Program-made: the position numbers and the translations under genes
In this document: positions 37,479-52,000 of the stretch, piece after piece
Position numbering within the stretch: position 1 is the stretch's first letter
Layout of the letters: each line of letters begins with the position of its first letter
Origin: Reclinomonas americana ATCC 50394
Lineage: Eukaryota
Assembly: GCA_048213135.1 (NCBI GenBank)
Contig: PS015009.1
Span: 1,860,001-1,924,000 of the forward strand
DNA: 64,000 nt
Direction: 5' to 3'
The notes under the pieces: model-generated
What the model was told of the DNA's origin: nothing
Database searches by the model: none
The model's input: the letters and a program-made list of their open reading frames with translations, nothing else

Positions 37479-37497
37479 TTACTAAATTATTTAGTAA
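37479..37497. promoter_or_regulatory. Palindrome TTACTAAAT-T-ATTTAGTAA (CTAA-N5-TTAG core), candidate SOS box
   Basis: 9-bp perfect inverted repeat between divergent umuD and the 2H gene; imperfect second copy CTAA-aatag-TTGG at 37505-37517. Confidence 0.7.
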
Positions 37498-37570: not shown

Positions 37571-38191
37571 ATGAAGAAGATCATCAACAGCATACCCGGT
37601 TACAGGGTATATGAATACCTGCTGGTGCTGAATCCCCACGAGGAATTACGCCAGCGCATCATGCAGGTGAAACAGGCTTTTTTTGACACGTACAAGGCGG
37701 GCACGGCCCTGTACAGCAAACCGCACCTTACGCTGGTGAACTTTGTACAGTATGAAATGATGGAGGAGCGCATCATCAACCGGTTACAGCTGATCACCAT
37801 GGGCTTCCAGCCGATCAAGGTGGAACTGAAGGATTTCGGCAGTTTCCCGGCGCACACCATCTATATCAATGTTACTTCCAAAATGCCCATCCAGGGACTG
37901 GTGAAATCGGTACGTGCCGAAACACAGCGGCTGATGAAACTTAATGATGACCACAAACCGCATTTCATGCTGGAGCCGCACCTCACCATTGCCCGGAAAC
38001 TGCAACCCTGGCAATATGAGCAGGGATGGCTGGAGTACAGTCACAAACATTTCACAGGGCGTTTCATCGCGGATGCCATGCTGCTGCTGAAAAGACCGGT
38101 GGGTGAAATGAAATACGAGATCATCCGGCGTTTTGATTTCCAGAACCTCCCGGTAAGTACGAAGCAGGGTGACCTGTTCGGTGGTATATAG
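37571..38191 (+). CDS. 2H phosphoesterase (2'-5' RNA ligase family)
   Basis: Two HxT motifs (PHLTLV, PHLTIA); C-terminal QGDLF. Confidence 0.88.
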   Translation: MKKIINSIPGYRVYEYLLVLNPHEELRQRIMQVKQAFFDTYKAGTALYSKPHLTLVNFVQYEMMEERIINRLQLITMGFQPIKVELKDFGSFPAHTIYINVTSKMPIQGLVKSVRAETQRLMKLNDDHKPHFMLEPHLTIARKLQPWQYEQGWLEYSHKHFTGRFIADAMLLLKRPVGEMKYEIIRRFDFQNLPVSTKQGDLFGGI

Positions 38192-38410: not shown

Positions 38411-39521
38411 ATGTCCGGGAAACTTCAGCAGGATCATCATAAAGTGCAGGCGCAGCAACAGTCAGAGGAAAAACAATACCTCCATGGCCGCGGGGCGCAG
38501 ATCAATACAAAAAACCGCTTCCTCAAAAACGAGGTTACAAGGGAACACACAGAAGCCATCGACGATTGGGAAGAATCCAATGTTCCAACGCAATACCTCG
38601 AACAGCAATCGAAGACGATCGTGAATAAAGTGGAAAGTAAGGATGTAGGCATGGGGTACAGCATGAACCCTTATGCGGGCTGCGAACACGGCTGCATCTA
38701 TTGCTATGCCCGTAATGTGCACGAATACTGGGGATACAGTGCAGGACTGGATTTCGAACGAAAGATCATTATCAAAAAAAAACGCCCCGCAACTGCTGCG
38801 TAAATTCCTGATGCACCCCAAGTGGGATGCCACACCCATCATGCTCAGCGGCAATACCGACTGCTACCAGCCCGCTGAACAAAAATACCGGCTCACCCGC
38901 GGACTGCTTGAGGTATGCAACGAGTTCAACCAGCCTGTGGGCATACTTACCAAAAACTCGTGGATACTTAAAGACAAAGATGTACTGCAGGAAATGGCAA
39001 AGAAGCAGATCGTTTCGGCGATGGTGTCCATCACTTCTTTCAACGAAGACCTGCGCCGTATTATGGAACCCCGCACTACAACGGCCAAACAAAAATTGAA
39101 AGTGATAGAAGAACTCAGCAAAGCGGGCGTTCGTATGGGTATTATGATGGGGCCTATGATACCCGGTTTGAATGAGCACGAAATGCAACGCATCATGAAA
39201 GCCGCGGCCGACAATGGCGCCACGTTTACCGCATATACGTTCATCCGACTCAATGGCGCTATCAAATTTTTATTCCACGACTGGCTCTATAAAAACTTCC
39301 CCAACCATGCGGATAAAGTATGGCACCTCATCGAGCAAAGCCACGATGGCAAAGTGAATGATACCCGCTGGGGTGTTCGCATGCGGGGCGAAGGCAATAT
39401 CGCCGAACTGGTAGCGCAGCAATACAAAAAGTATGGGAAACTCTACAACATGAATGCGGAAGAGTGGAGCTTGAATTCGAAGTTGTTCAGGAGGCCGGGA
39501 GAGCAGGGGAAGTTGTTTTAA
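38411..39521 (+). pseudogene. PA0069/SplB-like radical SAM protein, split by a +1 frameshift in an A9 run (38774-38782); probably a sequencing error
   Basis: NPYAGCEHGCIYCYAR (CxxxCxxC); continues as NAPQLL..SGNTDCYQPAE..EPRT; C-terminal QGKLF. Confidence 0.88.
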
Positions 39522-39611
39522 TTTTTTCAAAAATAAGATATCTTGTAACCATTGATTTTACTGCTGTTCCCGGCGATGTGAAAATCAAATAAAAATATTT
39601 TTAAAAATAAA

Positions 39612-39644
39612 TTTGGCAAATCAGAAAAAATATTTTCATCTTTG
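39612..39644 (+). promoter_or_regulatory. Bacteroidota primary-sigma promoter of the leader/tRNA transcript
   Basis: TTTG (39612-39615), 21-nt spacer, CATCTTTG (39637-39644), close to the -33/-7 TTTG..TAnnTTTG consensus. Confidence 0.6.
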
Positions 39645-39676
39645 CATCGCAAATAAAAATTTTAAAACAACAAAAC

Positions 39677-39769
39677 ATGCTACGCAATATTTCACTCATA
39701 GGAGCGCAAAGCGGGTACAGCCACAAGGGCTTTGATACCACGTGCGGGGCATGTTATGCTGAAGGATAG
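39677..39769 (+). CDS. Putative leader peptide 1 (MLRNISLIGAQSGYSHKGFDTTCGACYAEG)
   Basis: ATG after an A-rich initiation region; followed by a terminator whose 5' arm is complementary to 39744-39750 inside the ORF. Confidence 0.6.
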   Translation: MLRNISLIGAQSGYSHKGFDTTCGACYAEG

Positions 39770-39794
39770 TACCAAAACTGATTCGCTATAACAC

Positions 39795-39822
39795 AAGCCC
39801 CGCCTGAGATGCGGGGTTTTTT
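39795..39822 (+). terminator. Intrinsic terminator / attenuator 1
   Basis: aagccccgc-ctgagat-gcggggtt followed by a T run. Confidence 0.85.
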
Positions 39823-39873
39823 ATTATCCCGATCTCCAAAACCGGGTGGAAGTTCCGGCGTTCAAAAAAACAG

Positions 39874-39984
39874 ATGATGACACGACAATATAAACGATTT
39901 ACAGCCAATGGCCGGTTGTTCGCAAAAAAAATGCGAATACACGGCGCCGGTAGTAATGATAAACCTAACAACGACCGAAGTTGA
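39874..39984 (+). CDS. Putative leader peptide 2 (MMTRQYKRFTANGRLFAKKMRIHGAGSNDKPNNDRS)
   Basis: Manual translation; four CGA codons; CGACCG (39972-39977) is complementary to the next terminator arm. Confidence 0.55.
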   Translation: MMTRQYKRFTANGRLFAKKMRIHGAGSNDKPNNDRS

Positions 39985-40013
39985 ACAGGTAAGGTATAGC
40001 CATGCCTTCTTGC

Positions 40014-40045
40014 AGCCCGGTCGCCAGTAACGACCGGGCTTTTTT
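40014..40045 (+). terminator. Intrinsic terminator / attenuator 2
   Basis: agcccggtcg-ccagtaa-cgaccgggct followed by TTTTT. Confidence 0.85.
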
Positions 40046-40072
40046 ATGCCCGAAAATAAAAGGAGGTATGAC

Positions 40073-40207
40073 ATGAAATTTTTAGCGATTGTATTGATCA
40101 TCAGGATCATCATCGCTTTGCTCCATAAAGAAAAAAACGAAGCAGCAAACGATGACGTCAGCAGGAACGAGGTAAGGCATCCTGCCGAGTTCAGGTTAAG
40201 GTATTGA
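40073..40207 (+). CDS. 44-aa peptide with hydrophobic N-terminus (MKFLAIVLIIRIIIALLHKEKNEAANDDVSRNEVRHPAEFRLRY)
   Basis: AGGAGGT Shine-Dalgarno at 40061-40067; all five Arg codons are AGG; followed by a hairpin and T run at 40221-40260. Confidence 0.5.
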   Translation: MKFLAIVLIIRIIIALLHKEKNEAANDDVSRNEVRHPAEFRLRY

Positions 40208-40281
40208 GTGCAGAAAGGAGAGAACGGGCGACCCTGTATTAGCCGCAGGGCCCCGTTTTTAAAATCCTGTCAAACGCACCT

Positions 40282-40352
40282 GTTGTCTTTAGCTTATTGG
40301 CAAAGTACTGCACTGTGAATGCAGGGAACAGGGTTCGATTCCCGGAGACAAC
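40282..40352 (+). tRNA. tRNA-His(GUG), T-stem one base short
   Basis: G-1:C73 pair, acceptor ttgtctt/gagacaa, anticodon arm ctgca-ctGTGaa-tgcag, TTCGATT loop; no encoded CCA. Confidence 0.8.
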
Positions 40353-40364
40353 CCCGGAAGATAA

Positions 40365-40458
40365 TACGGCCTGGTGTAAGGGTAACATGACCAGCCTCCT
40401 TCCTTTCTGGAAGGTAAACACAGGCGGGATGTTTCCGGTTCAAATCCGGAGGTCGTAC
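40365..40458 (+). ncRNA. tRNA-like element with normal acceptor/D/T arms and an expanded structured anticodon region
   Basis: tacggcc/ggtcgta acceptor, tccgg-TTCAAAT-ccgga T arm; anticodon region replaced by gcct-ccttcc-tttct-ggaagg-taaacac-aggc. Confidence 0.65.
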
Positions 40459-40467
40459 AAAGATGAA

Positions 40468-40513
40468 AGTATTACCGGGGGTGCGGTGCCGGGTAATCCC
40501 GGCCGGTAATACT
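40468..40513 (+). ncRNA. Minihelix-like degenerate tRNA remnant
   Basis: agtattaccgg/ccggtaatact stem enclosing ccggg-taat-cccgg; related to 40623-40687. Confidence 0.4.
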
Positions 40514-40519
40514 GTATTC

Positions 40520-40591
40520 TGCGGCCTGGTGTAATGGTTAGCACGCCACTCTTATAAGGTGGTGATCCCGGTTCAAGTCCGGGGGCCGCGA
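40520..40591 (+). tRNA. tRNA-Ile(UAU)
   Basis: tgcggcc/ggccgcg acceptor, gtgt/gcac D stem, ccact-ctTATaa-ggtgg anticodon arm, cccgg-TTCAAGT-ccggg T arm; no encoded CCA. Confidence 0.85.
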
Positions 40592-40622
40592 CAAAAGGAA
40601 GGAGCAGGTAAGTGATTAAAAT

Positions 40623-40687
40623 ATTACCGGGTGGTGTATTGGAGAGTTCACCAGGCTTTGGCCCCGGGTTATGCCCGGCCCGGTAAC
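40623..40687 (+). ncRNA. Degenerate tRNA-like element (possible Gln-UUG remnant)
   Basis: ttaccggg/cccggtaa acceptor-like stem, gtg/cac D-like stem, ggc-tttg-gcc mini anticodon arm, ccggg-ttatg-cccgg T-like arm. Confidence 0.45.
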
Positions 40688-40689
40688 AA

Positions 40690-40761
40690 GGCGGTCTGTT
40701 GTAACGGTAACCTACTACTCTCATAAGGTAGATGATCCCGGTTCAAATCCGGGGGCCGCAA
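40690..40761 (+). tRNA. tRNA with CAU anticodon (Met or Ile2), weak D stem, G1:A72 mismatch
   Basis: ctact-ctCATaa-ggtag anticodon arm, cccgg-TTCAAAT-ccggg T arm; close paralogue of the UAU tRNA. Confidence 0.72.
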
Positions 40762-40766
40762 CAAAA

Positions 40767-40839
40767 TGGTTCGTAGCTCAATGGTGAGAGTACCCGGCTT
40801 TTAACCGGGGGGCTGTGCGTTCGAATCGCACCGGGCCAG
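40767..40839 (+). tRNA. tRNA-Lys(UUU)
   Basis: tggttcg/cgggcca acceptor, gctc/gagt D stem, cccgg-ctTTTaa-ccggg, gtgcg-TTCGAAT-cgcac; no encoded CCA. Confidence 0.9.
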
Positions 40840-40902
40840 CAAAAGAAACAAGGTTGCAGGGTAGTGCATTTTCATCCTCCGGTAACCGCAAAAAATAAAA
40901 CG

Positions 40903-41970
40903 ATGAACGATCAGCAAATGATAATTAATGCCAACAGCGTTTTTGCATCGCATTACCTCGACAGTAAGGCACTGTACATGTATGCTTTCAAAACGGTGCC
41001 CTGCGTGAGTTTTGTCAATCATATTGACGGTGAAAAAGCTTTTGACGCGGTAAAGGAAAAATATGGAACGATGATTTTGTCGGTACACCGTTACAGGAGC
41101 TACAACAGGAAAGACACACATGCGGATTTCGACGACACCCTGGTATTGCTGAGTAATAACTGCCTGCTGGAATTCGATTCAGGTTATTGTGAAATACTCC
41201 ACAATTACGGTTCCGAAGCATTCGTAAAAGACCTGACCGCTTTCCTGAAAACATTCAGGGAGCGGCAAAGGAAAAAACCGCTGGAGATCAACCTGATCGT
41301 TCGCAATGGCGGTTACCTGGAACTGAAGTCCATGGAAGTGAAAAAGACAGCCCTTGACCTGGGCCTGTTTTATGAAGATGATTTCAGGGAAACCGACACC
41401 ATCATCCGGCAAAGACTGAACCAGAAAAATGACAAAGGTATTGTACTGCTGCACGGGTTACCCGGCACCGGTAAAACAACTTACCTGCGCCACCTGATCG
41501 GGAAGATTAAAAAGAAAGTGATGTTCCTGTCACCCAATATCGCCGGAAGCCTGGTTGATCCTGAGTTCATCGACCTGCTGATCGACAACCCCAACAGTGT
41601 ACTGATCATTGAGGATGCGGAAAATATTATTATGGACAGGAGGAACAACAGCAATTCATCTGTATCCAACCTGCTGAATATATCCGATGGCCTGCTGGCA
41701 GACTTCCTGAATGTTCAGCTGATCTGCACTTTCAACAGTTCGCTTACGCTGGTCGACAGCGCGCTGATGCGTAAAGGGCGGCTGATAGCGAAATATGAAT
41801 TCGGCAAATTAGGCATCGGTAAAGCGCAGGCGCTGAGCGATCATTTGGGCAACAGCACCATCATCAACAAACCGATGACCATTGCCGAGATCGCCAACCA
41901 GCATGAGAAGGAGCAGCAGCCGGAAAGGGTCGAAGTGATCGGGTTCCGACGGGAAGAATTGATGAACTGA
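40903..41970 (+). CDS. AAA+ ATPase with uncharacterised N-terminal domain
   Basis: Walker A GLPGTGKT, Walker B LIIED, SNLLNISDGL, ALMRKGRL arginine finger; ATG40903 preferred. Confidence 0.9.
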   Translation: MNDQQMIINANSVFASHYLDSKALYMYAFKTVPCVSFVNHIDGEKAFDAVKEKYGTMILSVHRYRSYNRKDTHADFDDTLVLLSNNCLLEFDSGYCEILHNYGSEAFVKDLTAFLKTFRERQRKKPLEINLIVRNGGYLELKSMEVKKTALDLGLFYEDDFRETDTIIRQRLNQKNDKGIVLLHGLPGTGKTTYLRHLIGKIKKKVMFLSPNIAGSLVDPEFIDLLIDNPNSVLIIEDAENIIMDRRNNSNSSVSNLLNISDGLLADFLNVQLICTFNSSLTLVDSALMRKGRLIAKYEFGKLGIGKAQALSDHLGNSTIINKPMTIAEIANQHEKEQQPERVEVIGFRREELMN

Positions 41971-41979
41971 TGAATACCG

Positions 41980-43002
41980 CTAGCCGGGAATCTTATCATA
42001 CAACTCAGCCATCAGCCTTACTTTTTTCCTGATCTGCCTGACGATATTGGACGGGGATATGACCCTCAACCCTTCGCCAAAACCCATGAGTTCTCTTTCC
42101 AGTTCAAAATTGGGAATGACCTCTATACTGAAAAGGGTTCCGCCTTTTACCGGTTCGAGTGTTTTTTGCGAAGGGTGAATGGGCTTGGTTTTGATATAAG
42201 GAGCCTGGCGGTGGCTGGCCCAGAACACAATAAGGGTGGGCTTTTCGGCGAAGTTGCGGGTAACGCCCACAATATCCCTGAAATAAGTTTGGGCATCGAA
42301 ATTCCGGTGCTCTAGAAAAAGTTCGTCAGGATGAGGTTGTACCTGCTGGATACGATCAAGTGCGAAAGTGATCAATTCCTTTCCCTTTTTGATCATACCC
42401 AGCACAAACCAGCGGTTGCGGTATTCTTTAAGCAGGCATGGATAGAAGATGATGTCATTGGCCTGCCGGGCCTTGAAAGACTGGTAAGTTAATACAACAG
42501 TGGTACGTCCAACGATGGCTTTGTATAATACATCCAGCCATTCGATACCGGTGAGCAGGTCGTTCTTTTCAAAATCGATGACCGGCGATTGGGCATGCTG
42601 TTCACTGTAGATCTTGTCTTCCAGTTTATTGACCATTTCATTAACATCATTGAAATGCGTGAACCCTTTGAACTGGCGCAGGAGATGCGATACTTCCTGG
42701 AGGATGTTCAGGTCCTGGGAGGTAAGCGGGATATTGGTGATCGAGTATTCCGGGTCTTCGTAGCTGTAATATTTTTTTTCAGTTACGATGATCGGGGCGT
42801 TATACCCCAGTTTGTCGCTGCGCATGGCGTTGAGGTCAAGCCGTATGGTACGCAGACTTACACCCCTGTCGAGTCCTTCGTATTCATAAAGGGCATCATT
42901 GCAGGCATCAATTAGCTGCTCAATGGTCCATTTGCGGCGGCGGTTCTGAAGACATTTATCAATGGTCCGGTACCTGATCAGGGCGTTGCGGTTAACGGGC
43001 AT
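41980..43002 (-). CDS. WYL-domain transcriptional regulator (wHTH-WYL-WCX)
   Basis: N-terminal NRNALIRY..ID..L wHTH, P.LLKEYRNRWFVLG, FALDRI, C-terminal WCX; divergent from TROVE. Confidence 0.93.
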   Translation of the reverse strand: MPVNRNALIRYRTIDKCLQNRRRKWTIEQLIDACNDALYEYEGLDRGVSLRTIRLDLNAMRSDKLGYNAPIIVTEKKYYSYEDPEYSITNIPLTSQDLNILQEVSHLLRQFKGFTHFNDVNEMVNKLEDKIYSEQHAQSPVIDFEKNDLLTGIEWLDVLYKAIVGRTTVVLTYQSFKARQANDIIFYPCLLKEYRNRWFVLGMIKKGKELITFALDRIQQVQPHPDELFLEHRNFDAQTYFRDIVGVTRNFAEKPTLIVFWASHRQAPYIKTKPIHPSQKTLEPVKGGTLFSIEVIPNFELERELMGFGEGLRVISPSNIVRQIRKKVRLMAELYDKIPG

Positions 43003-43038
43003 AAAAACTTTTTTTGCAAATTATAGAAAATATTTTTT

Positions 43039-43061
43039 ACTGTGCAAATAGATTGCACAGT
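43039..43061. promoter_or_regulatory. Inverted repeat ACTGTGCAA-N5-TTGCACAGT, candidate WYL operator
   Basis: Perfect 9-bp arms in the WYL/TROVE intergenic region, just upstream of an imperfect -7 element (GAgcTTTG). Confidence 0.7.
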
Positions 43062-43106
43062 TGTGTTGGAGCTTTGACTTATCAAACAAAAACAAAGGAG
43101 GTTACC

Positions 43107-44627
43107 ATGAAATTTAACCTGAAACTGAGAAGCAAAACAAAACAAGTAAGGAACTACGAAGGAGAAAAAGCATTTGTGCTGACCCCGAAGCTGGAACTGT
43201 ATACTGCTGTAGTTACTGCCGGTCTGAGCGACCAGTTCTACGAAACCGCACCGGAAAAGCTGGCCCGTATCCGGCAACTGATAGCTGCCAACGACCCGGT
43301 TTTCACAGCAAAGCTGGCAGTATATGCCCGGGAAGCGATGCACCTCCGCAGCATACCCCTGGTACTGGCTGTGGAACTGGCAAAACAGCACAGCGGCGAT
43401 ACACTGGTAAGTGAACTGGCCAGCCGGGTAATACAAAGGGCTGATGAAATAGCGGAACTGCTGGCTTACTACGCCCAGGCGAATGAACGGAAAGACATAA
43501 AACAACTGAATAAGCTGAGTAAGCAACTGCAGAAAGGCCTGGCGGAAGCATTTAACCGGTTCGACGAATACCAGTTTGCCAAATACAACCGTGATGCCAA
43601 AGTGAAACTGAAAGATGCCCTGTTCCTGGTACACCCGAAAGCGAAGAATGAAGAACAGCAGGTGCTGTTCAACAAAATAGTGAAAGATGAACTGCAGGTT
43701 CCGTATACCTGGGAAGTGGAAATGAGTGTGGCGGGACAACAAAAATTTGACTCTGCGGAAGTGAAGAAAGCGGCTTTCCGTGCAAAATGGGAAGAGCTGA
43801 TCTTCAGCAACAAAATGGGTTATATGGCAACGCTGCGTAACCTGCGCAACATACTGGAAGCGGAAGTGAGCAAAGAAGCACTGCAGAAAATATGTGAATA
43901 CATCGCCAGTGAAAAGGCGGTAGCGGCAAGTAAACAACTGCCGTTCCGGTTCCTGGCGGCGTACAGGGAACTGAAATCATTAAACAACGGTCGTACCGGT
44001 AAAGTGCTGGATGCGCTGGAAGATGCGATCCGGCACAGCGCAGCCAACATCGCAGGTTATAATGAAGATACCCGCGTGGTGATCGCTGCCGACGTAAGTG
44101 CCAGTATGCAAAAAAACATCAGCGCAAAAAGCAAACTGATGTATTACGATATTGGACTGGTGCTGGCCATGCTGCTGCAAAGCCGCTGCGAAAATGTGGT
44201 TACCGGCATATTCGGTGATACCTGGAAAGTGATCAGCATGCCGAAGAAAAATATACTGGCTTCCGTAACCGGTTTTTATGGCCGTGAAGGTGAAGTGGGT
44301 TACAGCACCAATGGTTACCTGGTGATCAAAGACCTGCTGCAAAGGAAAAGGGTGGTTGATAAGGTAATGATCTTCACCGATTGCCAGCTGTGGAACAGCT
44401 ACAACAGCGGTGAAAGCATCGCAAACCTGTGGAAAAAATACAAACAGGTAGCGCCGGGTGCCAAACTGTACCTGTTCGACCTGGCCGGTTATGGCCATGT
44501 TCCGCTGAATGTGATGAGGGATGATGTGTTCCTGGTAGCGGGCTGGAGCGATAAGATCTTCCAGGTACTGAAAGCAATAGAAGAGGGCAGCGATGCGGTA
44601 AAAATGATCGATAGCATTGCCCTGTAA
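43107..44627 (+). CDS. rsr: Ro60/Rsr TROVE-domain RNA-binding protein with vWA domain
   Basis: Helical TROVE region (YAREAMHLRS, RADE, FDEYQFAKY, TWE, MATLRNLRN, LPFRFLAAY); vWA MIDAS DVSASM and IFTDCQ; AAGGAGG before ATG43107. Confidence 0.95.
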   Translation: MKFNLKLRSKTKQVRNYEGEKAFVLTPKLELYTAVVTAGLSDQFYETAPEKLARIRQLIAANDPVFTAKLAVYAREAMHLRSIPLVLAVELAKQHSGDTLVSELASRVIQRADEIAELLAYYAQANERKDIKQLNKLSKQLQKGLAEAFNRFDEYQFAKYNRDAKVKLKDALFLVHPKAKNEEQQVLFNKIVKDELQVPYTWEVEMSVAGQQKFDSAEVKKAAFRAKWEELIFSNKMGYMATLRNLRNILEAEVSKEALQKICEYIASEKAVAASKQLPFRFLAAYRELKSLNNGRTGKVLDALEDAIRHSAANIAGYNEDTRVVIAADVSASMQKNISAKSKLMYYDIGLVLAMLLQSRCENVVTGIFGDTWKVISMPKKNILASVTGFYGREGEVGYSTNGYLVIKDLLQRKRVVDKVMIFTDCQLWNSYNSGESIANLWKKYKQVAPGAKLYLFDLAGYGHVPLNVMRDDVFLVAGWSDKIFQVLKAIEEGSDAVKMIDSIAL

Positions 44628-44633
44628 AACAAT

Positions 44634-44676
44634 AAGGTGGTTCCGCCACGGCGGGCCACCTTTAAAAGTTCTTTGA
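44634..44676 (+). promoter_or_regulatory. Hairpin plus boxA-like GTTCTTTGA ahead of the ncRNA array
   Basis: aaggtgg...ccacctt hairpin 44634-44662, then GTTCTTTGA 44668-44676, resembling rRNA-leader boxB/boxA. Confidence 0.55.
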
Positions 44677-44702
44677 TCAAATTAAAATATTAAAAGAAAG
44701 TA

Positions 44703-44822
44703 AGGATGTCGTAGAAATGGGTTACTTCGTCACCATAACAGGGGCCAGGGTCCCGGGCAACCGGGAAGAGGTGCAAATCCTCAGCTTGACAGCGGCCATT
44801 TCTCATTTCGCCTGTTACTCCT
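44703..44822 (+). ncRNA. Y-RNA-like unit 1 (degenerate tRNA-like insert)
   Basis: GGATGTCGTAG..GTTACTTCG 5' motif, CGCCTGTTACTCC 3' motif; insert has cccgg-gcaa-ccggg and gagg-TGCAAAT-cctc T-like arm. Confidence 0.7.
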
Positions 44823-44829
44823 GAACTCA

Positions 44830-44965
44830 TTGAGGTGTCGTAGTGCAGCATTGCTTTGGTAGAGCATCCCGTCACAGGCGGGAAGGCCGCAGGTTCAAGC
44901 CCTGCTCTTCCATTACAACCGGAAGATAGCTCAGCAAAACGCGGCTGCCCGCCTGTCACCCTCAA
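44830..44965 (+). ncRNA. Y-RNA-like unit 2 (tRNA circularly permuted at the D loop)
   Basis: ttgagg/cctcaa outer stem; insert order D3' (ggtagagc), anticodon arm (tcccg/cggga), T arm (gcagg-TTCAAGC-cctgc), loop-closed acceptor (tcttcc/ggaaga), D5' (tagctcag). Confidence 0.78.
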
Positions 44966-44971
44966 AACTTA

Positions 44972-45090
44972 TAAATGATGCCGTAGAGCAGGGTTACTTC
45001 GTAATTCATATGGCTAGAATGTTTCACTTCCGGTGAAAATGCAGCGGGTTCGACTCCCGCCATGTGCCCTGTTCGCCTGTTGCTCATTTA
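44972..45090 (+). ncRNA. Y-RNA-like unit 3 (unpermuted D-anticodon-T body, Gly-like UCC loop, no own acceptor stem)
   Basis: taaatga/tcattta outer stem; attc/gaat D stem, tttca-ctTCCgg-tgaaa, gcggg-TTCGACT-cccgc. Confidence 0.78.
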
Positions 45091-45098
45091 CAATAAAA

Positions 45099-45218
45099 AA
45101 AGGTGCCGTAGGGTAGCGTTACTTCGGCTCTGTTAGTTGAACGGTTACAACCATGCCGCGGCATGATGTGGGTTCGAATCCCATACAGAAAATACCGCAG
45201 CCCGGTTTATCGCCCTTT
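45099..45218 (+). ncRNA. Y-RNA-like unit 4 (unpermuted tRNA body, shortened anticodon loop)
   Basis: aaagg/ccttt outer stem; tctgt/acaga acceptor, gttg/caac D stem, catgc-cgcg-gcatg, gtggg-TTCGAAT-cccat. Confidence 0.78.
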
Positions 45219-45263
45219 CTGTTTTTTGCTATTTTCAGTGTAACAACTGATCCATATAAGATA

Positions 45264-45391
45264 TTACAGGTGTCGTAGAGAAAAGTTACTTCGACTATTA
45301 ATCGGCGGGTCGCAGGTTCGAGTCCTGCTCCTTGCAAAAAGGATAGCTCAGTTGGTTAGAGCAGCTACTTTTTTCGCCTGTTACCCTGTAA
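45264..45391 (+). ncRNA. Y-RNA-like unit 5 (YrlA-type T-acceptor-D order, residual Asn-like anticodon loop)
   Basis: ttacagg/cctgtaa outer stem; cga-ctATTaa-tcg, gcagg-TTCGAGT-cctgc, tcctt/aagga closed acceptor, gctc-agttggtta-gagc D arm. Confidence 0.85.
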
Positions 45392-45397
45392 CCGTAT

Positions 45398-45518
45398 CCA
45401 GGTGCCGTAGATAAAAGCTACTTCGTACAAAAACGATCCAACGCAGGTTCGAATCCTGCTCCCTGCAAAGGGATGGCTGAGTGGTTAAGCAGACTGCTTT
45501 TATTGTTTGTCGCCCTGG
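45398..45518 (+). ncRNA. Y-RNA-like unit 6 (YrlA-type T-acceptor-D order)
   Basis: ccagg/cctgg outer stem; gcagg-TTCGAAT-cctgc, tccct-gcaa-aggga, gct-gagtggtta-agc D arm. Confidence 0.83.
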
Positions 45519-45565
45519 TTTTTTTATAACAAAACGGATCAGCTCCGTGAACAAAAAATACAGTC

Positions 45566-46324
45566 ATGAAAGAAATAATGAATGCACTGGAAAAGTTAGA
45601 AACCAGTGAAAAAATAAGGATACTGTACGCCTGCGAAACGGGCAGCAGGGCCTGGGGATTTCCATCACCCGACAGTGACTATGATGTACGTTTCATCTAT
45701 ATAAGAGAAAGGAACTGGTATTTGTCTCTGGGAAAACGGAAAGATACGCTTGAGCAAATGGCTGGTGATCTTGATATCACAGGATGGGATCTCAATAAGA
45801 GCCTGCTCCTGCTCTCCAGGTCAAACGCGGCGCTGATAGAAAGATTTCAATCGCCTGTATTTTACAAAAAAGATGAATTGTTTTACAGCGAAATGAGAGC
45901 ACTGGTGGAACGGAACTATTCTCCCATAGCCGTGTTCTTTCATCATTACGCACTGGCCGGTAATCTCTGGGAAGAGATGGACGATAAAAAAGAGGTGAGC
46001 CTGAAAAAATATTTTTATGTTATCCGGTCGTTGATGTCCTGTTACTGGGCCATGAAAACAGGTGAACTCATGCCCATGCACCTCGAAGGACTGATGACCA
46101 TATGGAACGACGAAGTGAAAGCCATGCTCCGGGATCTTGTCCGCGTAAAATCGGGTGTAAAGGAAGGGTATCTTTACCGCCCCGGGAAGCCGGAAACAGG
46201 CTGGATAACACAACTGTGGAAAGAAGTAGAAGAGGGAAAGGAGGGCCTGGCAACAAGGAAAGGCGACTTTAAAGAACTGAATGATTTTTTCACCAGCACA
46301 ATCAACAAAAATGCTGACAATTGA
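45566..46324 (+). CDS. Pol-beta superfamily nucleotidyltransferase (YcgL/RlaP-type)
   Basis: ETGSRAWGFPSPDSDYDVRF (GS..DxD), DITGWDL, LKKYFYVIR. Confidence 0.9.
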   Translation: MKEIMNALEKLETSEKIRILYACETGSRAWGFPSPDSDYDVRFIYIRERNWYLSLGKRKDTLEQMAGDLDITGWDLNKSLLLLSRSNAALIERFQSPVFYKKDELFYSEMRALVERNYSPIAVFFHHYALAGNLWEEMDDKKEVSLKKYFYVIRSLMSCYWAMKTGELMPMHLEGLMTIWNDEVKAMLRDLVRVKSGVKEGYLYRPGKPETGWITQLWKEVEEGKEGLATRKGDFKELNDFFTSTINKNADN

Positions 46325-47381
46325 CGACATAAAAGAAAAAGGCTGGCTGATATTCGAAGCCATCGCCGGCAGCAGGGCTTATGGCCTGGCAGGTGAAGGA
46401 TCAGATACGGACATCAAAGGCGTTTTTATACTGCCGCAGCATTTGCTGTATTCCCTGGATTATGTGCCACAGGTAACAAATGCTTCCAATGATATAGTAT
46501 ACTATGAACTGGGGCGTTTTATGGAACTGCTGGAGAAGAACAACCCGGGTATGATGGAAATGCTTAACATTCCCGAACACTGCATCCTGCTGAAACATCC
46601 TGTAATGGATAAGATAAAGCAGGAGGATTTCCTGTCCCGCCTTTGCGAACAACGTTTTGCCAACTACGCCTATGCGCAGGTAAAAAAGGCTTACGGCCTG
46701 GAAAAGAAGATCATCAACCCGGAAGATGGCAAACGGAAAAGCCTGCTGGACTTTTGTTATGTATATACCAGTGAGAAAGCGGTTAGCCTGCCCGGCTACC
46801 TGGCAGAAAAAGAGATCGACCAGGAGCAGTTGGGTTTGTCGGCGATCGATCATATGAAAGATTGTTACCGCCTCTATCTTTCAGAGAAAGGTAGGTACTC
46901 AGGTGTGGTTAAAAAAGAGCATTCCGATTCAGTTGCCCTGAGCCATATACCAAAAGGTGAGGAACCGGTTGGGCTTCTGTACTTTAATAAAGATGCTTAT
47001 TCTGTTCATTGTAAAAAATATAAAGAATACCGGGAATGGGAAGCAGAAAGGAACCCGCAAAGGTATGCAGCCACCATAGCGCATGGAAAGCGGTACGATT
47101 CAAAAAATATGATGCATGTTTTCCGCCTGCTGCTGATGGCAAAAGAGATCGCGACAGAAAGAAGGATCAATGTTTTCCGGTCCGACAGGGATTTGCTGCT
47201 GGATATTAAACAGGGAAAATTTGAGTATGACGACCTGCTCAACAGGGCTGCTGCTCTCCAGGCGGAACTACCTGCCCTGTATGCCGCATCTGGTCTGCGT
47301 GACGAGCCGGTGCCCGGATTGGCCAGTAAGTTGCTGGTGGAGATGCGAACCCTCCTGTATAAAGAGGAGAAGTTCAGGTAA
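46311..47381 (+). CDS. Second Pol-beta superfamily nucleotidyltransferase (RlaP-type, longer form)
   Basis: AGSRAYGL...SDTDIKGVF, NNPGMME, YDSKNMMHVFRLL; ATG46311 overlaps the upstream gene. Confidence 0.9.
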   Translation: MLTIDDIKEKGWLIFEAIAGSRAYGLAGEGSDTDIKGVFILPQHLLYSLDYVPQVTNASNDIVYYELGRFMELLEKNNPGMMEMLNIPEHCILLKHPVMDKIKQEDFLSRLCEQRFANYAYAQVKKAYGLEKKIINPEDGKRKSLLDFCYVYTSEKAVSLPGYLAEKEIDQEQLGLSAIDHMKDCYRLYLSEKGRYSGVVKKEHSDSVALSHIPKGEEPVGLLYFNKDAYSVHCKKYKEYREWEAERNPQRYAATIAHGKRYDSKNMMHVFRLLLMAKEIATERRINVFRSDRDLLLDIKQGKFEYDDLLNRAAALQAELPALYAASGLRDEPVPGLASKLLVEMRTLLYKEEKFR

Positions 47382-47468
47382 ACAGATGATAAGCGGGATG
47401 AAGCTGAACGGAGCGTCGCCACTGAAGCTCGTTGCAGCACTGACGCTGACAAACAAAAAAACTAAATC

Positions 47469-48920
47469 ATGAAAAAATTAAAAATAGAAGGAAAACAATT
47501 AAGGGCCATTGGTTACCCGGAAGGACCGGTGATCAGCATCGCTATGAAGACGATGGAAAAAAATTACAAACATCATACTCATGACGGGGCTATGAAAATC
47601 CTTGCTGCGGTGCTGGAAAACCCGGCATCGTATAAGGAAGACCAGGTGCTGGGCCCGGTAGCGGAACAATTGCTGCCAAAAGAAGACCCGGAAGGAGCGG
47701 AGATATCGCTTAACCAAACAGGTATCCGGTTCAATGTGTTCGGACAGGAATTTATTGAAGAGGGCGCCATGCACCAGATGTACCAGGCCGCCAAACTGCC
47801 GGTGAGTATAGCCGGTGCGCTGATGCCGGATGCCCACAGCGGGTATGGGTTACCGATAGGTGGTGTACTGGCAACAGACAACGCGGTTATACCTTACGGT
47901 GTAGGTGTTGATATCGGTTGCCGGATGTGCCTGAGCGTGTTTGATATTGATCCGAAAGAATTGTCGCAGCGGGAATCATTCTTCACAAGAGAATTGAACG
48001 AAGCCACATTGTTTGGAAGCGGTCAGCAGTTTGTACATGCTGAAGATCATGAAGTAATGGACCGGGAAGAATTTTATGCCACACCATTGCTGAAGAACCT
48101 GCACGGAAGGGCCTGGAAACAACTGGGATCGTCCGGCAGCGGTAACCACTTCGCGGAATTCGGTATCGTGGAAATAGGTGAAAAGGATGCGGTGCTGGGT
48201 ATTGAACCGGGTGTTTATACCGGTTTTCTTACCCATTCAGGATCAAGAGCCCTGGGCGCTAATATCGCCAACCACTATACCTTGTTAGCCAAAAAGAAAA
48301 GAAGGCTTCCGGGCGATGTGTCGCACCTGGCCTGGTTTTCACTGGATGAAGAGGAAGGGATGGAATACTGGCTGTCGATGAACCTGGCGGGTGATTATGC
48401 CTCCGCATGTCATCATGTAATACATGATAAGATCGCCAAACAACTGGGCCGGAAACCAATGAAACGGGTAGAGAATCACCACAACTTTGCCTGGAAGGAG
48501 AACTGGGAAGGCAAAGAAGTGATTGTACATCGTAAAGGGGCCACACCGGCAGGTAAAGATGTACTGGGTATCATCCCGGGATCTATGACTGCACCGGGTT
48601 ATATCGTAAAAGGCAAGGGTGTGGAAGCATCGGTTAACTCCGCTTCGCATGGAGCGGGAAGGCAGATGAGCCGTACCAAAGCAATGGCGAATATTACCGA
48701 GAAAGCAATGAAAGATATCCTGGCTGCCAATGGGGTAAAACTGATCGGCGGCGGATTGGATGAAGCGCCTTTTGCTTACAAGGATATTGAAAAGGTCATG
48801 CAATCACAGCAAACACTCGTTGATACCGTAGGAAAGTTTACACCAAAAATTGTAAAGATGGATGGCGCATCATCGAAGAAATGGACAAAGAAAAGAAGCG
48901 ATGATATCGCAGGTGAATAG
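47469..48920 (+). CDS. rtcB: RtcB RNA ligase (3'-phosphate/2',3'-cyclic phosphate to 5'-OH)
   Basis: MPDAH.GYGLPIGG, VGVDIGC, LGSSGSGNHF, HSGSR, HHN, HRKGAT, PGSM, SHGAGR. Confidence 0.96.
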   Translation: MKKLKIEGKQLRAIGYPEGPVISIAMKTMEKNYKHHTHDGAMKILAAVLENPASYKEDQVLGPVAEQLLPKEDPEGAEISLNQTGIRFNVFGQEFIEEGAMHQMYQAAKLPVSIAGALMPDAHSGYGLPIGGVLATDNAVIPYGVGVDIGCRMCLSVFDIDPKELSQRESFFTRELNEATLFGSGQQFVHAEDHEVMDREEFYATPLLKNLHGRAWKQLGSSGSGNHFAEFGIVEIGEKDAVLGIEPGVYTGFLTHSGSRALGANIANHYTLLAKKKRRLPGDVSHLAWFSLDEEEGMEYWLSMNLAGDYASACHHVIHDKIAKQLGRKPMKRVENHHNFAWKENWEGKEVIVHRKGATPAGKDVLGIIPGSMTAPGYIVKGKGVEASVNSASHGAGRQMSRTKAMANITEKAMKDILAANGVKLIGGGLDEAPFAYKDIEKVMQSQQTLVDTVGKFTPKIVKMDGASSKKWTKKRSDDIAGE

Positions 48921-48922
48921 AG

Positions 48923-48949
48923 AACGGCAACATATGTTGCCGTTTTTTT
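48923..48949 (+). terminator. Intrinsic terminator closing the rsr-rtcB operon
   Basis: aacggcaac-atat-gttgccgtt followed by a T run. Confidence 0.85.
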
Positions 48950-49004
48950 ATGCCTGCTGTTTATGTAAACAGGAGAAATCCTGCATCCGTTTGTAAAATG
49001 CTTT

Positions 49005-52000
49005 ATGAGAAGAATTGCTTTTGTGGTATGGATGATGATCGCTTTTAATGCAGGGTTTGCACAGCAAAGAGTTTTTAATTATCCTTTGAAACTGAAATCA
49101 TGCCATGTAACTATAGAAGTTAACCAGTTCATTGCCAGCACCTGGATTGAACTGGAATTTTATAACCCCACAGCTGCAGAAGTGGAAGGTTACCAGCGGC
49201 TGAATTTTTCCGAAAACCAGGTGGTGTCTGGCTTTCAGCTTGACCTGGATGGAAAATACCGGGAAGGGTCGATAGAAGAAAGATGGAAAGCAACCAATAC
49301 CTATAATACGATTGTAGGCAAAAGAGTCGACCCTGCCTTGCTGCAGATGTACAGCCGTACAGACTATGGATTGAATATTTATCCTGTTCCCGCCAAAGGG
49401 AGCCGCAAGGTGAAAATATTTCTGCAGGAATTGGTGAAGGAAGACAGCAACAGGATCAGGTACACGCTGCCAATGAACTTCAGGGATACAACAACGAGCT
49501 TCAGTGTGCAGGTTAAAGTGATGCAATCATCCCAGGCACCTTACACCAATGCGGGTTTACTTGAAGAGAGCGCTTTCAGCCAAACAGATCTTGGTTATGG
49601 TCTTTATACTCAAAGTACCGGCATTGTGCTCAACAAACCCATTGATTTTTACCTACCCCTCTCTGAAAGTAATACCCGTCTTTGTCTTTCAACTGAAAAT
49701 GGCGTCTCCCGTTTTTTATTGCGTACCAGCCCTGTTGTACCGGCGATCAATGAAAAGCAGGTACAGTCGCTAACTGTTTTCTGGGATGTGTCGCGTTCCG
49801 CGAGGGGAAGAGACAGGGTGAAGGAGCTGGAATACCTGAGGCGATACATTGCATTGCACCAGGTGGGCAAAACGGAGATCGTTCTTTTTAACCAGAAACT
49901 GCGGCAAAAGATCATTTATAACAGCGCGACGGGAAGTTTTGATGCCACCAGGAAATACCTGCTGGAATATGATTGCGATGGCGGAACAGAATTGGCCAAT
50001 CTCAATTTTGCTTCGGTAAAATCAGATATGATCCTGCTGTTCTCTGATGGCGCCAGTGTTTTTGGAAAGGCTTTACCGGTGCCGGGGAATGTCCAGGTAA
50101 ACAGTATTGTATCGGGTAATATGTTTAATGAAAGAATGCTCGACCAGATCACATCTTCATCAGGAGGAAGAATCATTAACCTCAATCAATATACAGATCC
50201 GGCAAAGTCACTGGTGCGGGAGTACGCTATCAACTACCTGCTGGAAGTACGATCCGGGAATAAAACGGTGATGATTAATGAGCTGCTTCCGCTTCGTTAT
50301 AACAAAGTGATCGGCCTGTCGGGTATCGCACCGGAACAGGATACGATTGAACTGGTGTATGGCAACAGCAGTACGGGTAAGTATGTGCAACGCATCCCGG
50401 TTAGCCTGGCAGTGGGACAATGCAATAATTATTTATCCAACAAAGTGAGGATGCTGAAAAGCTACGATTCTATCATGTCGTATAATAATTATCGCAATTA
50501 CTATCGCTGGTACGATCAGCTGGCATTTGGTATCAGGGAAAAAGTGCTCACTTATCAAACGGCTTTCCTGGTATTGGAACGAATAGAAGATTACATCAAA
50601 TTCAATATAGAACCTCCTGCTGAACTGGAAGAAGCCTGCCGGCAGCGCAATTATGTATACAAAAGCGACTACCGGATAAAAGCGCTGGAGGAATATAAAA
50701 AGACCAATGACCTGCAAAGGGTTGTCAACAACTATAATCAGCGCATCAGGCGATGGGATAAAAACGCTCCACTGGTAGACCTGAATAAACCGCTGGAGAT
50801 ACCGGCAACAGGCGCTGGTGAAAGCATGACCTACACTACACCGAAGGGAGAAATGAAACAGTCGTTTATGCTGCCACTGCAACCCGGGGGAGGTGAATTA
50901 AAAGAAGTGGTGGTTACTGGTGCATTCAATACCAAACGAACCGCACGGCAAACCTCTTTTAATGTACAAGTGGTCAGCCAGGCTCAACTGGATGTGATCA
51001 GGCAGGTGGATCTTAACAATGCCCTTGCCGGTAAAGTATCGGGTTTGCAGGTAAGAAGCCAGTCTGCCGCAATGCTTGGTGCAGAAACCATTGTCAGGCT
51101 GAGAGGAGAGAATGGTTTAAACATAGGAAGATCTGCGCCGTTGTATGTGGTTAATGGAACCGTTGTTCCGGATTCTAGGGATATTAATTTAAACGACATT
51201 GAAGATGTGACGGTATTACAAGGCCCGGCGGCTGCGGCGTTGTTTGGTTCCGAAGGGGCGAATGGCGCTATCGTAGTCAATTATAAAAGGGCAAAACGGT
51301 TGTATGGAAATATGTGGGTCTCTTATGACCTCGAATCTGTGGAAGATGAAGACTACCTGCAGCAGGTACAGCAGGCAGAACTGATGGATGTATACAACAT
51401 TTTCAGGGAGCTGGAAAAAACCCACAGCAATTCACCCTGTTTCTATTTCGACATGGCCAGGCATTTTCATGAACGGGGTATGCACAGGGAGGCCATGGAA
51501 GTACTGGAAACCGCGGCGGAAATAAGCTCTTACAACAGCAAAGGCTTAAGGGCAATTGCCTACATACTTGAAGAATGGAAAATGTTTGACAAGGCCATCG
51601 CCATATACCGGCAATTGATTGCGGGGGAATACTATAGCGCTATGGTGAACAGGGAACTGGCCCTGGCCCTTTTCAGGAATAAACAATACCAGGAAGCGAT
51701 AGATGTGCTTAATGAAGTTATAAAACGACCCGACCAGGATGGTGAAGACAATACCCTTCAGAAAGAACAGGCGCTTTCGGAAATGAATGCTTTTATAGTG
51801 GCGAGCCCCATCACTCCTGATCTTTCCGACATTGACCTGCGCCTGGTAAAGACCATGCCTGCTGACTTGCGTATAACCGTTGGGGGTAATGAATCTATTT
51901 ACTTCTATAATAATATCAGGCTGACGGAGCCCGATGGAACCAGGTGCAGTTCGGTTAACCCCGATTCGCGTAATGGCAATCATTTTACAAGTGACGGGTT

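Follow-up and report, generated by a model that had tools for sequence, protein, structure and literature searches.

A Bacteroidota locus combining a putative leader-gated tRNA/AAA/RtcB module with a candidate WYL-controlled rsr-Y RNA module

The 64,000-nucleotide window analysed here (assembly GCA_048213135.1, contig PS015009.1, positions 1,860,001 to 1,924,000, recorded under Reclinomonas americana ATCC 50394) carries, at about 39612 to 48949, a locus in which transfer RNA (tRNA) genes, an AAA ATPase, a WYL regulator, the Ro60 orthologue Rsr, Y-RNA-like units, two RlaP nucleotidyltransferases and the RNA ligase RtcB occur together. The carrier of the locus is a soil-type Bacteroidota bacterium. 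The locus is best described, from comparison with relatives, as a putative leader-gated unit of spare tRNAs, AAA and RtcB, fused with an apparently WYL-controlled rsr-Y RNA module and a pair of RlaP genes. It thus appears to consist of two separable modules, here called A (WYL, rsr, Y RNAs and rtcB) and B (leader, tRNAs, AAA and RtcB), which share one RtcB, and it is read, with a probability of roughly 60%, as a chromosomal locus by which the cell responds when its translation apparatus is damaged.

Proteins were assigned by profile searches of Pfam, NCBIfam, PADLOC and PDB, tRNAs with ARAGORN and RNAs with Rfam. Every gene and RNA listed in an earlier sequence-only reading of the window was recovered at or near the place it had been assigned (ARAGORN, Pfam and Rfam). 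The order on the plus strand is leader short open reading frames (sORFs) with terminators, tRNAs, AAA, rsr, six non-coding RNAs, the RlaP pair, rtcB and a terminator. The principal genes are as follows.

40903..41970, plus strand: AAA ATPase, Bcs1/YjoB-like, with its own N-terminal domain (PF00004, 42.3 bits, profile positions 1-129 of 131)
41980..43002, minus strand: WYL-WCX transcription regulator, divergent from rsr (Pfam WYL, E 1.3e-11, 44.8 bits; WCX, E 1.2e-9, 38.8 bits; PADLOC WYL, E 1.4e-22)
43040..43060, no strand: candidate WYL operator in the wyl-rsr intergenic region, a palindrome of TGTGCA, 7 bases and TGCACA
43107..44627, plus strand: Rsr/Ro60 orthologue, TROVE and vWA (TROVE E 1.2e-25, 91.1 bits)
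45566..46324, plus strand: RlaP nucleotidyltransferase 1, full length (PF10127, E 1.9e-66, 224.7 bits, cut-off 23)
46281..47381, plus strand: RlaP nucleotidyltransferase 2, N-terminal RlaP domain with an extension (PF10127, E 6.8e-23, 82.1 bits, residues 22-137)
47469..48920, plus strand: RtcB RNA ligase (PF01139, E 2.6e-78, 264.6 bits, cut-off 27, profile positions 1-423 of 426)

Gene order in relatives and the two modules

Neighbourhoods of the AAA gene were compared at the best 80 of 426 confirmed places, obtained from an alignment of AAA homologues in a collection of species-representative genomes; loci and genomes are given below by L and G numbers where they have to be told apart. The record titles of the 80 loci are nearly all those of Chitinophagaceae or related Bacteroidota, Niastella caeni, Terrimonas pollutisoli, Lacibacter luteus and Puia dinghuensis among them. 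On the 5' side of AAA, 69 loci extend for 3 kb or more, and 54 of these have tRNA genes on the same strand within 4.5 kb (at least three in 46, at least six in 37, and 16 in the largest). On the 3' side, 58 loci extend for 6 kb or more, and 50 of them have RtcB on the strand of AAA. Where both flanks are available, tRNAs 5' and RtcB 3' of AAA occur together in 39 of 52 loci. AAA and RtcB abut in many loci (smallest gap 8 bases), and in others 0.7-9 kb lies between them. When 44 of the 112 intervening open reading frames (ORFs) were scanned with Pfam, SPFH/Band-7 proteins and RNase-H-like proteins of the YkuK type (PF04308) prevailed, and HEPN proteins, RNA ligase, DEDD exoribonuclease, DinB_2 and Fic were sporadic. 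By tblastn, the same 58 loci contain Band-7 in 33, Rsr in 4, both in none, YkuK in 37 and the two RlaP genes in 8 and 8; the window itself gave no tblastn match to Band-7 or YkuK.

Module B, as these comparisons suggest, is a Chitinophagaceae arrangement of a sORF/terminator leader, divergent extra tRNAs, a Bcs1/YjoB-like AAA protein, a variable cassette and RtcB. The window appears to be the rarer Ro60 version of this common locus, with a Ro60/Y RNA cassette where relatives hold Band-7. One locus with the Chitinophagaceae-type AAA, Band-7 and RtcB (L054) bears the record title Bordetella parapertussis; its RtcB nests among those of the Chitinophagaceae, and the record is probably a mislabelled or contaminated bin.

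TROVE was detected in 20 of 401 evenly sampled Bacteroidota genomes, and the AAA family in 21 of 401 sampled Bacteroidota genomes. A Bacteroides thetaiotaomicron genome used as control was also positive for TROVE. Nineteen TROVE neighbourhoods were compared by tblastn, the twentieth TROVE genome being that of L148. Rsr was found in 18 of them, an adjacent RtcB in 15 and a WYL orthologue (45-74% identity), mostly divergent from rsr, in 13; at least three tRNAs were present in one locus, and neither the AAA gene nor a RlaP gene in any of the 19. The set WYL-rsr-Y RNA-rtcB appears, on this distribution, to be a phylum-wide Bacteroidota unit in its own right.

The sequence-only reading had presented the whole as a single integrated island, a view that the 19 TROVE loci do not bear out. 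Its companion claim of co-location holds for the tRNA/AAA unit and RtcB, which keep company in relatives at the frequencies given above, and does not extend to Rsr, found in 4 of the 58 AAA loci. The modules are fused, with one shared RtcB, in the window and at L006, L076 and L148, and in genome G160 they lie 2.6 Mb apart, each with an RtcB of its own. In an RtcB tree of 60 rows, built by a quick method with support from the Shimodaira-Hasegawa-like approximate likelihood ratio test (SH-aLRT) only, the window RtcB falls inside the clade of AAA-linked Chitinophagaceae RtcBs (support 96), and 11 of the 12 stand-alone Rsr-linked RtcBs fall outside it. The simplest reading would be that the WYL-rsr-Y RNA cassette and the RlaP pair entered the variable slot of an AAA locus, before the resident RtcB. 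The window RtcB scored 174.8 with the NCBIfam equivalog PRK09588, under the cut-off of 407, which indicates a divergent RtcB subfamily with an N-terminal extension of about 100 residues. The second RlaP protein matches the N-terminal catalytic half of PF10127 only.

Separability of this kind invites the explanation that the units are neighbours without a shared job, held together by inherited Chitinophagaceae synteny, with the tRNAs as ordinary supplementary genes. The rarity of Rsr at AAA loci, the absence of AAA from the 19 TROVE loci, the distance between the modules in G160 and a WYL operator that occurs singly in the window all agree with it. It is nevertheless considered unlikely, since the order leader-tRNAs-AAA-RtcB persists in 39 of 52 loci despite heavy turnover between AAA and RtcB, the variable inserts are nearly all RNA-acting (Band-7, RlaP, RNA ligase, DEDD exoribonuclease and HEPN), three loci have Y RNAs among the genes of the tRNA array, and the array tRNAs are redundant and divergent.

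The AAA protein has an invariant Walker A motif, GLPGTGKT, in the family alignment. The closest solved sequences are those of Bcs1 (PDB profile match, E 1.4e-5), and the top Foldseek matches of its structure model are YjoB and Bcs1, with E values of about 1e-11 and TM scores of about 0.4, the N-terminal domain included. Bcs1 and Bacillus subtilis YjoB (PDB 6sh3, 7w42) are thus its best matches in both sequence and fold, at an identity of 14-16% only. To our knowledge no link to RNA repair is on record for either protein, and a role of the window AAA as a remodeller would be a guess. PADLOC returned nothing meaningful for AAA, Rsr, RlaP, RtcB or the LigT-like protein described below. Thirteen distant members of the AAA family (32-46% identity; L135-L147) were also inspected in 15-kb stretches, which hold a WYL or WYL-WCX gene in seven, a PDDEXK_4 (PD-(D/E)XK) nuclease in five and an RNase_T/DEDD exonuclease in three; these may represent a separate WYL-controlled nuclease/AAA module.

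The leader and the tRNA array

The 5' part of module B consists of a promoter-like box, three sORFs each followed by a terminator, and the tRNA array.

39612..39646, plus strand: promoter-like element, TTTG, spacer and TCTTTGCA (TTTG and CTTTGC columns invariant in 36 aligned sequences)
39677..39769, plus strand: leader sORF1, 30 codons (30-31 codons in 36 of 36 aligned sequences, indels in frame)
39795..39826, plus strand: terminator 1 (hairpin 39795-39819 in the terminator scan; 95.2% of cells paired, two pairs changed on both sides)
39874..39984, plus strand: leader sORF2, 36 codons (related ORFs at the same position in relatives)
40014..40047, plus strand: terminator 2 (hairpin 40014-40040 in the terminator scan; stem and T-run near-invariant in 29 sequences)
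40073..40207, plus strand: sORF3, 44 codons, preceded by AAGGAGG (hydrophobic N-terminus, conserved C-terminal HPAEF-x-LR)
40222..40260, plus strand: terminator 3, read from the sequence (inner stem 40232-40250 in the terminator scan)
40282..40355, plus strand: tRNA-His(GUG), G-1 opposite C73 (ARAGORN; Rfam 44.2 bits)
about 40365..40458, plus strand: non-canonical tRNA-like RNA, its anticodon arm extended (doubled) and its UUUCU loop invariant
40520..40592, plus strand: tRNA-Ile(UAU) (ARAGORN; Rfam 59.6 bits)
40690..40762, plus strand: tRNA with a CAU anticodon, Met, or Ile2 if modified (ARAGORN; Rfam 41.7 bits)
40767..40840, plus strand: tRNA-Lys(UUU) (ARAGORN; Rfam 65.1 bits)

The promoter-like box, which we take to be of the Bacteroidota type, is separated from sORF1 by an A-rich stretch. 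The first 230 bases of the leader (39600-39830) are conserved in 46 of the 80 loci; of the 64 loci that reach 4.5 kb or more to the 5' side, 44 have a leader. The leader precedes the first tRNA in 38 of 39 loci and persists in five that lack tRNAs. In searches of five genomes the leader was matched once, at the AAA locus, in three; of the other two, one gave a 31-base match on another contig and one no match.

The sequence-only reading had called the tRNAs attenuated, which the comparison makes plausible. Twelve bases of sORF1 (39743-39754) match the 5' arm of terminator 1 in reverse complement, and the stop codon of sORF1 is placed so that a terminating ribosome would mask this segment. The putative antiterminator pairing is possible in 85% of cells, compared with 36-49% when the partner is slid, and its core GC pairs are retained in 34-36 of the 36 sequences. 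The wobble positions of the Cys-Gly-Ala codons within the pairing segment are nearly fixed in the 36 sequences, which indicates a constraint on the RNA. sORF1 keeps its length throughout, and terminator 1 is paired with covariation. The second module (sORF2 and terminator 2) seems to repeat the design of the first: about 55 bases before terminator 2, the end of sORF2 contains a copy of the 3' arm of that terminator, and the CGACCG of this copy is conserved in 29 sequences. Only about 20 bases separate the end of terminator 3 from tRNA-His, so the tRNAs seem to depend on read-through.

The idea that the leader is a test track sampling the codons of the array tRNAs was dropped because the share of array residues is too near background (0.749 for sORF1 residues 2-22 against 0.696 for the long ORFs of the window).

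The sORFs may instead encode functional small proteins, such as a membrane peptide from sORF3, with ordinary gene-end terminators behind them, the tRNAs being reached by leaky read-through or from an unrecognised promoter. The peptides do recur: the strict sORF3 pattern, a hydrophobic N-terminus with the HPAEF-x-LR end, is present in the window and in 19 of the 80 loci, always on the same strand 5' of AAA and with no match elsewhere within the 80 loci, and sORF1 and sORF2 have recurring motifs of their own. The lack of covariation in the antiterminator and of any codon bias towards the array tRNAs would also suit this explanation. It is held to be improbable, as the wobble positions of sORF1 that mirror the terminator arm are near-invariant, sORF2 carries the terminator-arm copy, no room for a promoter exists between terminator 3 and tRNA-His, and the leader is kept before AAA even in loci without tRNAs. 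Attenuation is the reading retained here for the leader, as a prediction.

The array of the window is small, with four tRNAs, and relatives reach 16. Its fifth element, the tRNA-like RNA at about 40365-40458, was missing from the parts list of the sequence-only reading, and neither ARAGORN nor Rfam called it in the window. Its predicted cloverleaf has 28 pairs, 14 of which show compensatory changes among 25 aligned sequences. The spacers at 40460-40519 and 40593-40689 contain mini-helices resembling acceptor and T-arm parts (TTACCGG ... CCGGTAA around a GGTTC-like hairpin).

The complete genome of one relative gave 50 tRNA matches, of which the 42 outside the array serve all 20 amino acids. 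The array tRNAs for Gln, His, Ile, Lys, Asn and Phe share the anticodons of housekeeping tRNAs in that genome at 51-71% identity only; the array tRNAs there are extra, redundant and divergent. At the 51 loci with at least three array tRNAs, Phe(GAA) occurs most often (39 loci), followed by Asn(GUU) (38), Lys(UUU) (37), Arg(ACG) and His(GUG) (34 each) and Gln(UUG) (29); Ala occurs in three only and Thr in none of the 51. Several of these common array tRNAs belong to the well-known targets of anticodon nucleases (colicin E5, colicin D, PrrC and zymocin-type toxins), which is offered as a lead only. At L185 (G160; 9781-9931) the tRNAs Phe and Gln lie 3' of an abutting AAA-RtcB pair and not 5' of it, and L039 is arranged likewise.

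The WYL operator and the Y-RNA-like units

The window has a single copy of the palindrome TGTGCA-7-TGCACA, where chance would give 0. Its distance to the WYL start is about 35 bases both here and at six of six WYL-bearing AAA loci, where it precedes Rsr or Band-7 cassettes alike. In stand-alone WYL-rsr loci the operator takes the form TGCGCA, seven bases, TGCGCA in 12 of 12 intergenic regions examined; the thirteenth WYL-bearing TROVE locus, in which WYL adjoins rtcB, was left out of this comparison. The Chitinophagaceae form differs from the stand-alone form by a matched change in both half-sites, and the candidate operator keeps a constant spacing from the start codon throughout the 19 regions compared. 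One wyl-rsr intergenic region (L179, 8165-8446) contains two copies about 110 bases apart. The WYL protein matched no helix-turn-helix family in Pfam at E 0.001 and no PDB sequence. As its operator is single in the window, WYL is probably not the controller of the tRNA/AAA unit.

No RtcA or RtcR was found by Pfam among the island proteins, and RtcR (PF06956) was found in none of five related genomes, with a positive Escherichia coli control. The proposal that WYL stands in place of RtcR fits these results, a WYL gene accompanying rsr at 13 of the 19 TROVE loci with a conserved operator; that WYL holds the place RtcR has in enterobacteria is the best-supported part of what the sequence-only reading inferred.

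Rsr aligns with PDB TROVE chains over residues 14-499 (E 2.2e-25), and its vWA_Ro60 match, at 27.3 bits, is just below the cut-off of 27.7. The NCBIfam equivalog NF041674 gave 23 bits against a cut-off of 900, which marks the window Rsr as a distant orthologue and not the curated equivalog. A start of rsr at 43014 was replaced by the ATG at 43107, which lies behind AAGGAGG.

A non-coding stretch of 940 bases 3' of rsr holds six Y-RNA-like units. Of their 5' motif, TGYCGTAG followed by 4-10 bases and a GTTACTT-like word, the 64-kb window has exactly six copies, all on the plus strand between 44707 and 45403.

44702..44822, plus strand: Y-RNA-like unit 1 (motif at 44707; ends pair in the fold)
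44831..44963, plus strand: Y-RNA-like unit 2, with T-arm and D-arm-like parts (motif at 44836; tRNA model 27.4 bits; fold z-score -2.6)
44975..45085, plus strand: Y-RNA-like unit 3 (motif at 44979; tRNA model 35.6 bits)
45099..45229, plus strand: Y-RNA-like unit 4 (motif at 45104; fold z-score +0.8, single-sequence fold unconvincing)
45266..45389, plus strand: Y-RNA-like unit 5, the most YrlA-like (motif at 45271; YrlA 43.5 bits, model positions 24-84)
45398..45526, plus strand: Y-RNA-like unit 6, with a T-run at its end (motif at 45403; tRNA model 29.6 bits across units 5 and 6; fold z-score -2.6)

Among the 80 AAA loci the motif is confined to Rsr-bearing ones (four of five Rsr-positive loci, none of the 75 others). 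In an alignment of 17 units the T-arm and D-arm blocks are conserved, units 1, 3 and 4 being without a clear D-arm. The unit ends pair in the folds of five of the six units; z-scores are weak (-2.6 to +0.8), and the single-sequence folds of four of the six units are indistinguishable from those of shuffled sequences. Because the folds are weak, identification as Y RNAs rests on the motif, on co-occurrence with Rsr and on partial Rfam matches. YrlA matches in relatives are full-length, at 31.9-42.3 bits. A tRNA-Gly called by ARAGORN at 44995-45069 was set aside, as it corresponds to unit 3.

At L013, L052 and L071, Rsr lies 5' of the tRNA array and a Y-RNA-like element lies within the array, recognised by the motif at L013 and L052 and by a sub-threshold YrlA match at L013 and L071. 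The interleaved elements occupy 9656-9790 of L013, 5414-5548 of L052 and 4727-4845 of L071.

Chromosomal setting, proposed function and known systems

Two further features were assigned at the borders of the locus.

37571..38191, plus strand: LigT-like 2H phosphoesterase of the 2',3'-cyclic phosphodiesterase family (Pfam 2_5_RNA_ligase2, E 1.4e-14)
48924-48950, plus strand: terminator after rtcB, with an 8-bp stem, a 4-base loop and a T-run, read from the sequence and absent from the list of the terminator scan

A LigT gene lies 5' of AAA in 30 of the 54 relatives' loci with at least 8 kb upstream, and the LigT-like protein is a possible RNA end-healing partner. Upstream of it, at 36505-37485, is an ORF of 326 residues without a Pfam or NCBIfam match, of which relatives often hold one or two copies at the same place (25-48% identity). 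A radical SAM gene of the PA0069 family (38411-39521) is broken in the window into overlapping ORFs in different frames (38411-38803 and 38673-39521); in relatives it is a single frame, and the split reflects a frameshift or an assembly error. Downstream, at 49005-52250, a protein of 1081 residues combines a VIT domain, a TonB-receptor plug with a SusC signature and TPR repeats, and its homologues stand just 3' of RtcB in several relatives (e.g. L004, L010, L017 and L044).

These surroundings bear on the explanation that the locus is a mobile or phage-derived tRNA island, serving codon usage or left behind by a prophage. The divergence of the array tRNAs from the housekeeping set and their A/U-rich anticodons, as in phage tRNA sets, would agree with such an origin, and jumbo phages are reported to combine tRNAs with RtcB, RlaP and TROVE (PMC7824862). 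The flanks are nevertheless chromosomal and conserved (LigT and radical SAM 5' in 30-31 of 54 loci, the VIT/TonB gene 3' in several), no integrase was found among the ORFs scanned, and none of 11 viral contigs with a distant AAA homologue has tRNAs, RtcB or WYL within 6 kb. A phage-derived origin is accordingly thought very improbable.

For the preferred reading, a response to damage of the translation apparatus, the following course of events is proposed. In module B, a single promoter at about 39612 would drive the three short ORFs with their intrinsic terminators. During fast translation of the leader, the ribosome would cover the ORF segment able to pair with the 5' arm of the terminator, so that the terminators form and the downstream genes stay silent. 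If elongation were slowed or stopped, by damaged or depleted tRNAs or by ribosome poisons, antiterminators could form, permitting read-through into the four divergent extra tRNAs, the tRNA-like RNA and the Bcs1/YjoB-like AAA gene. In module A, WYL bound to the wyl-rsr palindrome would control rsr, six YrlA-type Y RNAs, two RlaPs and rtcB, and its WYL domain may sense an RNA-derived ligand, as the CARF domain of RtcR does in enterobacteria. The array would supply replacement tRNAs, RlaP would trim or refill cut RNA ends and RtcB would reseal them, and Ro60 with its tRNA-shaped Y RNAs might serve as scaffold or decoy. What the analysis shows directly is which genes and RNAs are present, that their arrangement, the leader ORFs, the terminators and the operator are conserved, and that array tRNAs are redundant and divergent in one relative. 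Attenuation, co-induction, the ligand of WYL and all biochemical functions assigned here are inferred, as is the role against ribotoxins, phage or translation stress that the sequence-only reading had proposed. A search of sequencing runs listed metatranscriptome runs containing 18-24% of the words sampled.

A more elaborate version is put forward tentatively, as it is less probable than the general reading. The locus might be a two-input kit encoded in cis, in which three tandem sensors of ribosome speed release tRNAs, a bait RNA for anticodon nucleases and an AAA protein that strips or remodels damaged tRNA or ribosomes; independently, a WYL repressor sensing RNA fragments would open Ro60, the six Y RNAs, RlaP and RtcB, the WYL unit being the Bacteroidota-wide counterpart of RtcR.

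Several observations weigh against the proposed response function. The modules are separable, as in G160, where AAA and RtcB abut at 1.12 Mb and WYL-Rsr-RtcB lies at 3.75 Mb; 21 of the 58 AAA loci have neither Band-7 nor Rsr by tblastn, and the thirteen distant AAA members have no tRNA array or RtcB nearby. As to the leader, covariation in the antiterminator is zero because its core never varies, so that the alignment neither proves nor disproves the pairing. Regulatory codons are not evident in the leader, and its amino-acid make-up is near background. All three leader peptides are conserved as peptides, sORF3 most, for which reason the sORFs may be functional small proteins instead of mere sensors. 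Terminator-like sites in the region as a whole (13) are not above the number in shuffled sequences (11.3), and the three leader terminators rest instead on their conservation in relatives. The array of the window is short and appears to have shrunk, since its spacers look like decayed tRNA remnants, and a part of it may be degenerating. The Y-RNA-like units do not reach the YrlA (RF02553) gathering score of 69, the best of them scoring 43.5 bits over a part of the model, and the AAA structure model is moderately confident only (predicted local distance difference test, pLDDT, 68.6).

The locus type gathers bacterial Ro60 and Y RNA, RtcB, RlaP, redundant tRNA arrays and an uncharacterised AAA protein in one conserved order behind recognisable candidate control elements. 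It also offers experimental handles, namely mutable leader ORFs and terminators, a WYL protein with a defined candidate operator conserved in Bacteroidota, and natural exchanges between Ro60/Y RNA and Band-7. If attenuation is true, general translation failure would be sensed and answered with replacement tRNAs and repair, in a cis-encoded counterpart of the TrcR regulon of Anabaena. If the two-input version is true, the unit WYL-rsr-Y RNA-rtcB would be testable in tractable TROVE-bearing species. The Chitinophagaceae arrangement, its leader and the WYL-rsr link were not found in the literature searched; papers beyond it, and the supplements of Burroughs and Aravind 2016, may bear on the matter. 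The parts are of known kinds, and what is undescribed, as far as the searches reach, is the way they are combined, the tripling of the leader, the WYL operator shared across the phylum and the exchange of Ro60 and Band-7.

RtcB-centred repair systems with Ro/Y RNA or with Band-7/tRNA-like scaffolds, together with RlaP, were reportedly described by Burroughs and Aravind in 2016 (NAR 44:8525; cited in PMC6514570 and PMC7824862). The parts list and the modular shuffling of those systems match the locus type. The window differs from the Band-7/tRNA-like/RtcB system in having no Band-7 match, and Band-7 and Rsr behave as mutually exclusive alternatives at the AAA loci (33, 4 and 0 of 58 for Band-7, Rsr and both).

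In trp- and his-type attenuators, the 3' part of the leader ORF pairs with the 5' arm of the terminator, and a ribosome at the stop codon masks it. The window is similar in that the 3' segment of sORF1 can pair with the 5' arm of the terminator, with the stop codon positioned to mask it. It differs in lacking a run of regulatory codons, in having three tandem modules and in carrying tRNAs and repair genes instead of a biosynthetic operon.

The closest described likeness to module A is the rsr-yrlBA-rtcBA operon of Salmonella and other enterobacteria (PMC7790460, PMC4201824), in which Rsr, tRNA-like Y RNAs of the YrlA type, as defined by Chen et al. 2014 (PMC4201824), and RtcB likewise form one same-strand unit beside a dedicated divergent regulator with a ligand-binding domain, there RtcR with sigma-54. 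Hughes et al. 2020 (PMC7790460) report that damaged tRNAs activate RtcR, and suggest that YrlA might compete with tRNA for the nuclease. The window has no RtcA, and it has WYL-WCX with a palindrome in place of RtcR (not found in the five relatives searched), six Y-RNA units instead of two, and two inserted RlaP genes, the whole being fused to a tRNA/AAA unit. RlaP is reported to extend the 3' ends of damaged RNA by one or two nucleotides (preprint 10.64898/2025.12.29.696909).

Module B is most like the trn L-array and TrcR regulon of Anabaena sp. PCC 7120, where a redundant tRNA array is likewise linked to rtcB. Long tRNA arrays were reported from several phyla including Bacteroidetes by Santamaria-Gomez et al. 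2021 (PMC8421152), according to whom the array of Anabaena, normally silent, responds to impaired translation by induction and shares its regulation with rtcB, near which such arrays lie in some cyanobacteria. The repressor was identified as TrcR (PMC10272220); the genes derepressed in its mutant include rtcB and those of an AAA family ATPase and a slipin, and TrcR was shown to repress the trn array too. The AAA ATPase and slipin (Band-7) listed in that regulon recall the locus type, the AAA proteins being likened by name only. The parts are clustered in cis in the window and scattered over co-regulated sites in Anabaena, where the array numbers 26 tRNAs against four in the window and up to 16 in relatives, and the leader switches and WYL would replace the ribbon-helix-helix repressor TrcR. 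Jumbo phages also carry tRNA sets of their own with RtcB, RlaP and TROVE (Iyer et al. 2021, PMC7824862), for which a role in countering RNA-targeting attack is given; the locus of the window differs from these in being chromosomal and syntenic, with control elements, and its arrangement was found on none of the 11 viral contigs.

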